Virus record (IMG/VR): IMGVR_UViG_3300032225_002102
Location: 1-64,000 of that record
Direction: 5' to 3' (one strand)
From: a virus
Taxonomy: Duplodnaviria > Caudoviricetes
Length of the DNA stretch: 64,000 bases
Position 1 is the stretch's first letter. The number at the start of each line of letters is the position of its first letter. Under the pieces are notes generated by a model, which was not told where the DNA came from, ran no database searches, and saw only the letters and a program-made list of their open reading frames with translations. A program made the position numbers and the translations under genes. Positions 10,195-56,171 of the stretch are shown here, one piece after another.

Positions 10195-13100
10195 ATTTCT
10201 TTAATGGATTTTTAATTGCAACTATTTTATTTCCTCCTACTTGTTTCTTACTAAGATAAGTATTACTCCATAATCCTCTTTCTACAATCTTACCATCTTT
10301 ACGTTGATACATTGGTTTTCCATTATGTATAACGTTCTTACCTCCTGTTTGTTTTTGATTCATTTTTTGTAATTGCTTATCATAATAATCAGATTTTCTT
10401 TGTTGGAATCTACCCATGCTTCCATCTGTATTTCTAATATATTCTGAACCAATTACTCTTTCTGGATTATAAAATTCAGTATTTTCTGGTGCTTGATAGT
10501 TAATATCTGGGTACTGATAATTTACTTCTTGTTGTTGATAAGGAATTGATTCTATTTGAGATAAATTATTAATTTTATTTCTTTGTAAGATTTTTACTGG
10601 TTGTATTGGTTTTTTATAAACAAATTCATTACCTTTTTCTGCATATCCACCTATTCTTGGATCTTTAGGATTATTTAAATATATAGGAGGGTATTTTGAA
10701 TCATATTGATTTTTATTAAGATATGGTTTATCACTTATTATTTTTTGATTATTATTTTGATTTTTTATTGGAACTTGATTTTTTATTTGTTTTTGTAATT
10801 CTTGTAATTTAGTAGCTTGTTCAGGATTTTGTTGAATAAGATCGTTTATAATTGCTATAGCACCAACAGCATCTTTTGCTCCTAATTTTAAAGCTTCTGT
10901 TACAATTTCTGGTTTGTAAAGATTTTTAAGTAAATCATCAAAATTATTCCAAAAAGGTTTATGAACAGCTTTTAAATTTCTCCCAATAAAATTTACTGCT
11001 CCTGTTGTTTTACCTAAAGCTTTTTGAGCTTTTAAAGCAGCAGCTACAGCAGGTTGAAAAACATCTTTTGTTTTTTGTATTGTTTTTATACCTTTAGCTA
11101 ATTTTCCTATTTTTGAAATAGCACCTACTCCTAGTAAATTTGTAGGATCTAATACTAAATCAGTAGCCATTTTCAAATACGGATGTTCTTTTGCATCTAT
11201 ACCTATACCATCAGATGGATTTTCATATTTAGGAGGAGCTTTTCTAAGACCTGCACCATATAATGCTGCTTCTGTTGCATAGGTAGCAGCTTTTGCTGGA
11301 GCAGATAATACATCATCTATTTTTTCTAACCAACCTGCTTGAGCATATTCAATTTCTCCTCCTATTTGTTTTGCAAAATTACGTGCAAAATTTGCTTTCT
11401 TCCTCATCTCAGGAGTATATCTTCCTTCTGGAGCATTTAAAATCTTACGTGCAGCTTCTTGTACACTCATACCCATTCGAGTAGCTTGTGCTTTAAATGT
11501 ACCACGCTTTGAAGGATCTAATTGTATTCCAGTTTGAGCATACATTTCATTATTTTCAGATTTACTATCTTCTTGATTCTGAAATAAAAATTCATAAATA
11601 TCTTCTGGAGTTGGAATAGATTTTAATACATCTACGTTAGCAACAAATGAATTAGCTTGTCTTTCAAAGTTTAATGGTTTATCAATATTTTTATATTTAC
11701 TTACAAGTTTCTCTCTTGATTCTAATAGTTTATCCATTAGTTTAGCTGGAGACATAGAACTTAATGGACGTTTAATACTAAGATTTAATTGTTCTGCTAA
11801 TGCTAATGCTTCTTGTGGTTTAATCTTAATTTCTTCATCTGTTCTACCATAAGTATTATCAGATTGATTTCTATTTTCTTGTGTAGCTGATAATACTGAA
11901 TTTACATTATATGTACCTTGTCCACCTTGTCCTTCAGGAACATATAAAGATTCTCCATCAATAATTAATTCATTATCATCGTGGGAAGGTATGTTAGTTA
12001 TTTTACCTACTTTACCCTGATTATCTTTTACATATTCACCATTTTCTACTATGGTAAGGTTATTAGATTCTCCACCTTGTTGTTTCATATCATATACTGT
12101 TTCTGCTCCTACAGCTCCTAATAAACCTCTATTACCATATAATTCTTTAGGTTTCATTTTTTTATACAATTTATCTACAGGTAAATAAGTAGTTCTACCA
12201 TATTTAGTAGCAAGATTACCATTATCTAAATATTTATTAGTTCTTTTAAATGAACCTAATATTTTAGGATTTTCAATAGCATAAGGTACAGCTAAACTAG
12301 TTCCATTAATCAATGCACTTTCATAATCTCCTTCTCGTAAAGCATCAGCAGCTTGATATAAATCAACTCCTGCTCCAATCATATTACTAATTTTTCCAAT
12401 TGCTTGTGCTTGAGGTAAAGGTATAAAATTACCTAAAGAACCAATATCTGTTGCTATATCTAATCCTTTTACAATAGGGGTAAATACCTTTCTTTTAAAT
12501 TCATCTTGTGCTTGTTGTCTTTCAAAAATATTTCTTACATTAGGATTTAAAGGTTTGTATTCTGAAAGAAAAGTTTGATTTTTTTCAAATTCTTGTTTTT
12601 GTTTTTCTTGATTTAATAAATCTTGTTGTAATTTAGAATAAGATTGATTTGTTTCTCTATCTAATCCTTTGTTTTTCGATCCAACCAAGTTGTTATTATC
12701 AAATAAAATAAATTTATTTTTGTTAGAATAACCATTATTAATATTATCTTTTCCATTTTGAGCATATTCAATTTCTCCTCCTGTTTGATATTTATATCTA
12801 GCTTTATTTGGTATAATATTATAAGGTTGCATTTTTCCGTATTCAGTAATAGGTGCTACTTGATCTCTAAATTTTTTAACTTTATCAACATATTCAAAAG
12901 AAAACTTTGATGGATCTGGATTATCTTTTCCTAATAAATAAAAATCAACTAAATCCTTATTGTTTACTTTACCAGGACTATTCCATTTCAAAACTGTTAA
13001 ATCAAGTTGTTGTTCTTTTGTTAAGTTTGGAAAAGATTTTTTTATAGAATTTAAATCTTCTGCTAATTTACCCATACCTGCTAATACCTCATTCTTTTTA

Positions 13101-53957: not shown

Positions 53958-54206
53958 ATGACAAAGAAAAAAGAAAGAGGTTCATTCAACCTATCTTTAT
54001 CCACAGTTAGGAGAAAGAAAAGGTTGGATTCTTACTTTGCTTTTACACAGCAGAGAGAAGAGGAAGCAGAATATGCTTATTCTTACTTTCGTGGTTTGTT
54101 AAAAGCTAACGTAAGAATAGGTTGTGGTTGTGGTTGCGGAGGAGATAGTGTAAACGAGAGTTTATATTACCTTGGAGCAAGCATATATCGCACTCTAAAC
54201 GATTGA
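53958..54206 (+). CDS. Small protein with GCGCGCGG motif
   Basis: ORF with A-rich leader. Confidence 0.55.
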   Translation: MTKKKERGSFNLSLSTVRRKKRLDSYFAFTQQREEEAEYAYSYFRGLLKANVRIGCGCGCGGDSVNESLYYLGASIYRTLND

Positions 54207-54310
54207 AGTTTCTCCCTTAAAAATTGGAGATAAGATTCGGAGTTTAACTGTACTTGGCAACAGAAACAGTTACTTTTATTTTTTATTTTATCTTTAAACA
54301 AAAAAAAACA

Positions 54311-54673: not shown

Positions 54674-54859
54674 GTTAAAGTGGTAAATGATAATAAAGTA
54701 GGGATATTATTTCTCTACTTTTATTTTCTTTTTACCTGAATATGAAGATTAGGTAAATTTCTTATATATGCAAAGGATGTTTTGGATTTATGTAGATGTA
54801 CATAAGAAAAATAGTTCCGAGAAGTTAATCAGACTACTTGCATTAAGTTATATAAGAAT

Positions 54860-54889
54860 AAAAGAAGTAGATTAGTTCTACTTCTTTTT
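54860..54889. terminator. Bidirectional terminator
   Basis: AAAAGAAGTAG-attagtt-CTACTTCTTTT. Confidence 0.7.
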
Positions 54890-54905: not shown

Positions 54906-55358
54906 TTAATTAGTTAAATATTTTATAGATTCTTCTTCTACAATATTAAAACTTTCTATTTGCTTTCCTTCAATGATTGCATCAATTAAAGTTTTTCTAT
55001 CTACTTGTGATTCTCTCCAAACAGTTAAAGGATTTAATTGATATTGTCCTTTTGCTAATTTAACAACAAGTTTAGAATGACATAATCTATCAATACATTT
55101 ATAAAATGTTTGCTCGTTAAAATTTTTACCTATATCTTCTTGTATTTGAGTTTGTAATAATTTGTTTGTGTTAAACACATTTAACTTATTACTATTTTTA
55201 GATAAGTATAAAAAAATTTGCATATCTAATAACGAAGATAACTTTTTAGTTAAATCTAAAACATTGTCATACAATTGTGTGTAATTATCTTCAATTTCAA
55301 TGTAACCTTTCTTTTGAGTAGTTACAATCTCTTCTGTTTTAAAATAAAATCTGCTCAT
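54906..55358 (-). CDS. RepL-like winged-HTH replication/maintenance protein
   Basis: YTQLY..QIFLYL..EQTFYKCIDRL....LV.KLAKGQYQLNP..W. Likely ATG at 55358 with a promoter box at 55383-90. Confidence 0.7.
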   Translation of the reverse strand: MSRFYFKTEEIVTTQKKGYIEIEDNYTQLYDNVLDLTKKLSSLLDMQIFLYLSKNSNKLNVFNTNKLLQTQIQEDIGKNFNEQTFYKCIDRLCHSKLVVKLAKGQYQLNPLTVWRESQVDRKTLIDAIIEGKQIESFNIVEEESIKYLTN

Positions 55359-55478
55359 TTGAAATTTGTTTAAATTATAATACAAATATACTATTTTAAA
55401 TCTACAATAACTAATCAATACTATACTAAAATAATTAATATTTTATTAGGAATTGTAAATTATTTTATTATGAGAGAT

Positions 55479-55541
55479 ACTATACCTACAGGATAGTACA
55501 ACTATACCTACAGGATAGTGACACTATACCTACAGGATAGT
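55479..55541. repeat. Three 19-bp iteron-like repeats at 22-bp period
   Basis: ACTATACCTACAGGATAGT at 55479, 55501, 55523; 3-bp spacers ACA and GAC. Confidence 0.9.
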
Positions 55542-55675
55542 AGGATTTGATTAAAAATAGCTTAAAATGCTTATAATCAACGTTTTATATAATTTTAGTT
55601 GTTATAACTCTTTCTACTGTAGGTGATTAGCCTATCTGTGTACTGATTTGCATATATTTTGAACAGCAATTACAT

Positions 55676-55730
55676 TTTCTATATATAGTTATTTTACTAT
55701 ACTGATGAGTTCTTAAGAACGAAATAGAAA
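55676..55730 (+). ncRNA. Type III hammerhead ribozyme
   Basis: Stem III TTTCTAT/ATAGAAA, cleavage triplet AUA 55681-83, stem I TATAGT/ACTATA, core CTGATGA 55702-08, stem II GTTC-ttaa-GAAC, GAAA 55721-24. Confidence 0.85.
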
Positions 55731-55759: not shown

Positions 55760-56092
55760 ATGCAAAAATTAAATTTAAAAACAAATGTACAATTGAATGG
55801 TAAAGTACTTTATACTACTTTGAACCTTTCAATTGGAGTGCATCACTTATGCAGTGTAACATTACATAATGCTGATGTAAAAAGTATTGAATTTCGTTTA
55901 TCTTTACCTAAAGCATGTGGAGAAAATGTAATGGAATATGTATATTTTACTGATAATTTGGAATTACAAGGATTAAGTTCTTTCCATATCTACCAGTTAT
56001 ATAAAGAATCAGTTGCAAGATACTGGAAAACATCTCCTTACAAAGAGGTAATGAAAAATTATCATTTAAGTAAAGCTAATAAATATGCTTAA
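55760..56092 (+). CDS. Hypothetical early protein
   Basis: ORF 30 nt downstream of the hammerhead. Confidence 0.6.
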   Translation: MQKLNLKTNVQLNGKVLYTTLNLSIGVHHLCSVTLHNADVKSIEFRLSLPKACGENVMEYVYFTDNLELQGLSSFHIYQLYKESVARYWKTSPYKEVMKNYHLSKANKYA

Positions 56093-56123: not shown

Positions 56124-56171
56124 ATAGATAATTTATCTGCTATTTTAAAGAATGGTAGGTAAATTATCTGT
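56124..56171 (+). other. 21-bp RNA hairpin with four G-U pairs
   Basis: ATAGATAATTTATCTGCTATT-ttaaag-AATGGTAGGTAAATTATCTGT. Confidence 0.75.

Follow-up and report, generated by a model that had tools for sequence, protein, structure and literature searches.

Hammerhead ribozymes have been known in phages since 2011, and their role there is still unproven. Perreault et al. (2011; PMC3088659) showed self-cleavage, in vitro as well as in E. coli, for phage and prophage hammerheads that are positioned ahead of genes; transcript processing was proposed as their role, and the excision of RNAs bracketed by ribozymes was raised as a possibility. For natural hammerheads in general, Dufour et al. (PMC2632901) described sequence motifs for loop 1 (UNmYN) and loop 2 (RNnA); the 5′ U of the former and the 3′ A of the latter pair with each other in most cases. 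Here we compare with these systems a hammerhead on the plus strand of IMGVR_UViG_3300032225_002102 (hereafter G000), an IMG/VR virus contig of 129,291 nt that is estimated to be 87% complete and whose positions 1 to 64,000 constitute the window, that is, the whole stretch of DNA that was analysed (64,000 nt).

The best GenBank matches of the family B polymerase of G000 are with uncultured crAss-like phages (cr131_1, cr124_1, cr130_1, a Bohxovirus; 26-28% identity), and G000 is accordingly best described, in agreement with these matches, as an uncultured crAss-like phage. Leftward genes, the terminase and structural genes among them, extend to about 52.6 kb and rightward genes begin at about 52.8 kb; the hammerhead (55676-55730) is found just past this switch from leftward structural genes to a rightward block that includes the DNA polymerase. 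The gap that contains it is 341 nt long and separates a lone leftward gene (54906-55418, minus strand) from a rightward gene for a 110-aa protein (55760-56092, plus strand), whose mRNA would be headed by the ribozyme. No plus-strand ORF of at least 20 aa overlaps the element, and it sits in a divergent gap, with the end of the previous same-strand ORF 1002 nt away. A sequence-only reading of this DNA had given its distances to a set of repeats and to an ORF, and both hold: the last of three 19-mers, discussed below, ends at 55541, 135 nt upstream, and a 29-nt spacer separates the end of the hammerhead from the ATG at 55760.

All parts of the ribozyme can be located on the plus strand. The 5′ strand of stem III (55676-55682), as read from the sequence, the RF00008 alignment and the predicted fold, ends in U16.1 and is followed by A17 at 55683, where the RF00008 alignment and standard hammerhead numbering place the predicted scissile bond (55683/55684). 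Stem-loop I (55684-55701; sequence and fold) consists of 6 bp, formed by 55684-55689 with 55696-55701, and the hexaloop UAUUUU. The catalytic core strand CUGAUGA (C3 to A9, 55702-55708; sequence and RF00008 alignment) leads into stem-loop II (55709-55720; sequence, RF00008 alignment and fold), in which 4 bp, GUUC/GAAC (55709-55712 with 55717-55720), are closed by the tetraloop UUAA. The remaining stretch (55721-55730; sequence and RF00008 alignment) holds the core GAA (G12 to A14, 55721-55723) and then, from A15.1 onward, the 3′ strand of stem III, so that the consensus GAAA is present at 55721-55724. Stem III thus has 7 bp (55676-55682 with 55724-55730), which include the A15.1-U16.1 pair (A55724-U55682); the cleavage triplet is A-U-A, and nucleotide 17, A55683, is other than G, as required. 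The pairs next to the core are likewise intact, namely U55684-A55701 (1.1-2.1) and G55709-C55720 (10.1-11.1). Indeed, all 17 pairs of the three helices (6, 4 and 7 bp) are Watson-Crick, without a mispair, and the topology, with stems I and II closed by loops and stem III open, is that of type III.

Folding of the 55-mer with ViennaRNA gave the hammerhead as both the minimum free energy and the centroid structure, at -8.1 kcal/mol, and both were retained when the element was folded within a 216-nt context. The stability of the fold is modest (z only -1.4), and its helices are A-U rich. The sequence-only reading had proposed a check against Rfam hammerhead models, and its outcome was divided. 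A full-length match to RF00008 (1-54 of 54) was obtained at 44.6 bits, with E-values of 1.1e-8 in a 401-nt search, 3.8e-7 in a 14-kb search and 8.3e-10 when that family alone was run against the 129,291-nt record; however, the score falls below the curated gathering cut-off of 48.5 bits, and for this reason a default Rfam scan of the window reports nothing. Compared with the RF00008 (Hammerhead_3) model, the element has the full consensus core, the A15.1-U16.1 and G10.1-C11.1 pairs, a non-G nucleotide 17, closed stems I and II and an open stem III, whereas its stems are almost entirely A-U, its loop 2 has 4 nt instead of the 8 in the model and its loop 1 is longer. It also differs in being carried by a DNA phage rather than by a viroid, satellite or eukaryotic repeat.

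A covariance model trained on 104 distinct type III hammerheads from other IMG/VR contigs, with G000 excluded, scored the element at 58.9 bits (E 1e-14 over 890 kb), a score that is partly inflated because the pattern used to assemble the training set fixed the same stem II as in G000; the near-perfect pairing within that set is likewise a product of how the search descriptor was constructed. To estimate the frequency of such motifs by chance, CTGATGA was planted in 400,000 flanks generated with a first-order Markov model based on the window (27% G+C). In 11 of these 400,000 cases the outcome was a complete type III motif of 17 bp or more, a rate of 2.75e-5 per CTGATGA that corresponds to roughly 3.3e-4 expected per genome, and a motif with helices of 6, 4 and 7 bp arose in none of the 400,000 trials.

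The two loops conform to the natural motifs to different degrees. Loop 1, UAUUUU, fits the UN3YN hexaloop, which is the commonest natural form (PMC2632901), and loop 2, UUAA, provides the 3′ A that partners the 5′ U of loop 1 but lacks the 5′ purine of RNnA, as it starts with U. In having a UN3YN loop 1 and a loop 2 that ends in A, the element resembles the type III hammerheads of viroids and satellites, such as those of CChMVd and sTRSV (PMC2632901), while differing from them in the U at the start of loop 2 and in its putative use, which would be mRNA processing rather than rolling-circle replication. Compared with its counterpart in the syntenic relatives described below, loop 2 is also shorter by 4-5 nt. 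A tertiary contact between loops 1 and 2 is plausible from these features, but since loop 2 is shortened and without its 5′ purine, it is uncertain whether the contact would allow fast cleavage at cellular Mg2+. The same architecture, comprising a 6-bp stem I, a U-rich loop 1 of 5-7 nt and a loop 2 ending in A, is present in phage contigs L038, L081, L084, L089 and L119.

Like the phage hammerheads of Perreault et al. (PMC3088659), that of G000 is intergenic, on the coding strand and some tens of bases ahead of a small gene, and it passes the acceptance rules of that study, with a consensus core and no mispair next to it. In contrast to their hammerheads, which often occur as clusters in long transcripts, between genes that run in the same direction, it is solitary and lies in a divergent gap. 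Clustering in the sense of several ribozymes flanking genes on one transcript is not seen in G000, where neither Rfam nor the phage-trained model revealed a second ribozyme in the 129-kb record. Excision of an RNA by a pair of ribozymes was considered for G000 and rejected, as no partner ribozyme was found. A comparison with 168 other phage hammerheads gave a similarly two-sided picture. Downstream of these, the next same-strand ORF begins at a median distance of 38 nt and, in 58% of cases, within 60 nt (of random positions, as a control, only 17% have an ORF start within 100 nt). Upstream, the median distance from the end of the previous same-strand ORF is 32 nt, and none of the 168 is inside a long ORF. 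By this standard the G000 hammerhead is typical downstream, at 29 nt, and atypical upstream, at 1002 nt.

Searches with elements of stem II illustrate the range of phage hammerheads more broadly. The pattern GUUC/GAAC was found in at least 119 viral contigs of IMG/VR (L002-L120), many of about 60 kb; of the hammerheads among the matches listed, 125 were of type III and 44 of type I, often with two to six per locus, and the dominant type III form among the matches listed had a 7-bp stem I, the loop GWGU and a loop 2 of the form NAAA. A metagenome scan for stem II together with loop 2 (GUUC-UUAA-GAAC) returned only two unrelated type I hammerheads, L166:1764-1786 (minus strand) and L167:5318-5340 (plus strand), each in a short gap before a gene.

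Single-protein searches of IMG/VR with both flanking ORFs and the polymerase gave no matches, blastn and tblastn against INPHARED gave none for the hammerhead locus or the 110-aa ORF, and alignment of that ORF against viral, metagenome and genome collections yielded no locus. Alignment of the polymerase, by comparison, led to 45 more distant loci at 31-42% identity. A strict hammerhead descriptor matched none of the 45, but the covariance model found a match in one of them, L127, at 2225-2280 (33.3 bits, E 1e-6), which the descriptor had missed because this hammerhead carries an extra U that the descriptor does not allow. The coordinates taken for the element are L127:2223-2282 and L177:11253-11312. 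These two loci, both on crAss-like contigs, have the hammerhead in common; the contig of L177 is 136 kb long and is also the source of L128. Their polymerase is about 40% identical to that of G000; the other polymerase relatives showed none within the flanks examined with the covariance model and the descriptor.

Several features identify the L127/L177 hammerhead as the counterpart of that in G000. Stem III is preceded by the same 7 nt (ATTACAT, 55669-55675 in G000) and followed by the same bases in both versions, and no other locus shows this combination; indeed, among all loci the ATTACAT flank is limited to G000, L127 and L177/L210. Upstream of the hammerhead in L127/L177 is a homologue of a Csx15-like gene of G000 (71% identity), and downstream, after one extra 68-aa ORF, is a 113-aa homologue of the 110-aa ORF (27% identity, E 1e-7). 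Beyond the element and the 12 nt that flank it, the intergenic regions can scarcely be aligned, with 40-44% identity by MAFFT as compared with 32% expected from composition for ungapped random sequence. Within the element, the differences preserve pairing. For example, pair 16.2-15.2 is A-U in G000 and G-C in L127/L177, and in stem II the second position is U-A versus C-G and the fourth C-G versus U-A; in stem I, several pairs differ, or are related by a compensated shift of one pair. Two-sided changes therefore affect all three stems, and no pair is broken in either version. The comparison covers L127/L177 and the subfamily described below. Maintenance of the hammerhead by what appear to be compensating mutations, at a syntenic site in distant relatives, is the strongest evidence for the element that the sequences provide.

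These data bear directly on the possibility that the element resembles a hammerhead only by chance, or is a relic in decay whose cleavage is now too slow to be useful. One might point to the score below the Rfam cut-off, to the weak, A-U-rich helices, to a loop 2 that is shorter than in the syntenic relatives and matches only half of its motif, and to the few chance motifs that, by extrapolation from the simulation, would be expected over many gigabases of A+T-rich DNA. Yet the E-values range from 1e-8 to 1e-14, every core base is intact and the syntenic homologue shows compensatory changes with no broken pair, and we consider a look-alike or relic very unlikely. The claim of the sequence-only reading that this is a complete type III hammerhead, with all core elements and perfect stems, is instead borne out by the sequence, the fold, the RF00008 match and the comparative evidence alike. 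We conclude that 55676-55730 (plus strand) is confirmed as a genuine, canonical type III hammerhead, for which self-cleavage is predicted.

A pattern built on the shared stem III matched 61 IMG/VR stretches in all, and at least ten distinct sequences among these form a tight subfamily with the L127-type hammerhead (L127/L177, L172, L173, L176, L181, L196, L199, L205, L207, L211 and L213). In its members an unpaired U directly follows CUGAUGA, between A9 and G10.1; they also have in common the loop 1 sequence CUAUUG, an 8-nt loop 2 and C17, and their stems I and II covary heavily. The plus-strand hammerhead of CChMVd is likewise known to have an insertion after A9. Rfam RF00008 gave no report on the subfamily even at an E-value of 0.01. 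Several of the crAss-like contigs that carry these hammerheads, which are 65-142 kb long, have terminase, structural or small rightward genes in common with G000, and the ribozyme is consistently placed in them: soon after a strand switch, after a gene-free interval of 370-1100 nt and 19-29 nt before a small ORF on the same strand. The G000 hammerhead thus resembles the subfamily in stem III, in the core of stem I (AUAG/CUAU in several members) and in its place on the genome map, as well as in its flanks where L127/L177 are concerned, whereas it differs in having no extra U, the loops UAUUUU and UUAA, and A17. Without the extra U, with a shorter loop 2 and with A instead of C at position 17, it is closer to the classical consensus. 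As a separate observation, L177 contains a sub-threshold match to twister-P1 at 10203-10289 (plus strand; 40.3 bits, where the cut-off is 67.2, and E 2e-5), on the same strand as the hammerhead and about 1 kb upstream of it; no counterpart of this match was found in G000.

The 110-aa protein encoded downstream of the ribozyme in G000 has nine metagenomic homologues (P0002-P0010) at 64-88% identity and no match in Pfam, PHROG, Atlas, PDB or BFVD; its AlphaFold model (pLDDT 77) has five strands and two helices. Hairpins mark the limits of the putative transcription unit. A terminator-like hairpin at 56125-56170 (plus strand) closes the unit of hammerhead and ORF, another at 54695-54721 (plus strand) ends the upstream plus-strand unit, and a 12-bp hairpin with T runs on both strands at 54860-54888, behind the minus-strand gene, resembles a bidirectional terminator. 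Such sites, identified with a terminator scan, are enriched in the region (8 as compared with 1.6 in shuffled sequences). Because of the hairpin at 54695-54721, the ribozyme transcript probably starts downstream of it. Matches to a sigma-70-like promoter occur in the region at chance level (29 against 30.6 expected), although the promoter type of the phage or its host may differ. Further upstream, a weak match to alpha_tmRNA at 54157-54274 of the window (plus strand; 20.3 bits, E 0.011) straddles the start of the Csx15-like gene and is probably noise.

The start of the ribozyme RNA could even lie inside the motif. Were a local promoter to start transcription at or within the hammerhead, most transcripts of the 110-aa gene would be without an intact ribozyme, and the hammerhead would act only on the occasional read-through RNA, giving it a 5′ end at about the same position. 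The terminator-like hairpins upstream imply a promoter somewhere within 55419-55700, and a -10-like hexamer, TACATT, does end at 55676, some 6-7 nt before A17 and overlapping the conserved ATTACAT flank; similarly, TATAAT occurs in the same register before the hammerheads of L176, L196, L207 and L213. However, both the hexamer and the best -35 element to go with it are weak, matches of this kind are at chance level in such A+T-rich DNA and most members of the subfamily have no such hexamer, and we regard this arrangement as quite unlikely.

The gap also contains the three 19-mers mentioned above, which are exact, quasi-palindromic copies at 55479-55541 with 22-bp spacing and are confined to this site within the window (0.03 expected). 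The seven bases with which they begin, ACTATAC, recur at 55421-55427 and at 55696-55702, the latter being the 3′ strand of stem I plus C3. The repeats match no CRISPR-repeat or other Rfam family and, judging from their sequence, resemble the operators of a dimeric DNA-binding protein. The sequence-only reading had suggested that the ribozyme might trim an origin-proximal RNA, for which we find no support. Were the 19-mers to mark an origin at which the ribozyme trims RNA for the initiation of replication, their exactness, their restriction to this site 135 nt upstream of the hammerhead and the turn of the cumulative GC skew near 52-54 kb would be accounted for. But the skew turn coincides with the switch in coding strand, the syntenic relatives keep the hammerhead without the repeats and the neighbouring gene has no match to a replication-initiator family. 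Moreover, no origin is known to make use of a hammerhead. Such a role in replication is, in our judgement, hardly credible.

A further question is which product of cleavage would be the useful one. If it were the upstream piece, the hammerhead would serve as a 3′-end maker for a non-coding RNA terminating in a 2′,3′-cyclic phosphate, possibly with the help of a second ribozyme upstream, and the 5′ end of the mRNA would be a by-product. The gene-free 370-1100 nt that precede hammerheads of the subfamily, the sub-threshold twister-P1 match in syntenic L177 and the suggestion of ribozyme-bracketed RNA excision by Perreault et al. (PMC3088659) are all consistent with this idea. In G000, by contrast, neither Rfam nor the phage-trained model detects the second ribozyme; the upstream gap is only 257 nt and has no similarity to the gaps of the relatives, and the upstream RNA (55470-55683) folds no better than shuffled sequence. 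In addition, what is conserved is that the next start codon follows at a short and constant distance. An upstream product is therefore possible but unlikely.

The reading that we favour, and that we hold to be rather likely though far from assured, is that the element is a functional, cis-cleaving type III hammerhead in a plus-strand RNA leading into the gene at 55760-56092. Here we infer, rather than show, plus-strand transcription from upstream of 55676, cleavage at cellular Mg2+ and an effect on mRNA stability or translation. As the RNA is transcribed, the three helices would fold around the CUGAUGA/GAAA core and the RNA would cut itself after A55683. The 5′ piece, either a promoter-proximal leader or read-through RNA, would end in a 2′,3′-cyclic phosphate and, as we propose, fall away because it is held only by a 7-bp, A-U-rich helix. 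The 3′ piece would be the mRNA, beginning with a 5′-OH at 55684 and carrying stem-loops I and II at its tip, followed by 29 A/U-rich bases and the AUG, for a leader of 76 nt. Of the corresponding proposal in the sequence-only reading, the cut after 55683 that leaves a 5′-OH end on the downstream mRNA stands as the best-supported interpretation, while the processing or stabilising effect attached to it is one that we, too, can only infer. Cleavage would give the first gene of a small unit a fixed 5′ end, uncoupled from the sequence upstream, and the ribozyme would probably also shield the mRNA from RNases that depend on the 5′ end. In its simplest layout the unit would contain one gene, in the order promoter, hammerhead, ORF and terminator, bounded by the terminator-like hairpins.

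This arrangement has an engineered parallel. RiboJ is a synthetic insulator for 5′ leaders, built from the sTRSV hammerhead, that cuts off promoter-derived sequence and stays in place as a 5′ hairpin structure. The G000 element is similarly a type III hammerhead, in a predicted 5′ leader, with the difference that RiboJ is engineered and the phage element natural.

In G000 we thus encounter a known ribozyme type in a known kind of place, conserved in position within a crAss-like lineage that has been little sampled and unusual, in a small way, for standing alone in a putative leader. Because the Rfam cut-off hides the G000 hammerhead and the RF00008 model misses the extra-U subfamily, ribozyme counts in such phages are underestimates. 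The position of the hammerhead has been kept at about 40% polymerase identity while neighbouring genes changed, and its function would therefore be tied to the 5′ end of the downstream message. More tentatively, and with appreciable doubt, we suggest that in one crAss-like clade the hammerhead may be a fixed landmark that heads the rightward block and acts as a natural, leader-clipping insulator rather than as a cutter of polycistronic RNA, with G000 having a reduced version in the form of a solitary, terminator-bounded, one-gene cassette. If this is true, a triphosphorylated and possibly structured or regulatory upstream RNA would be removed in these phages, and the mRNA would be left with a 5′-OH and a hairpin cap.
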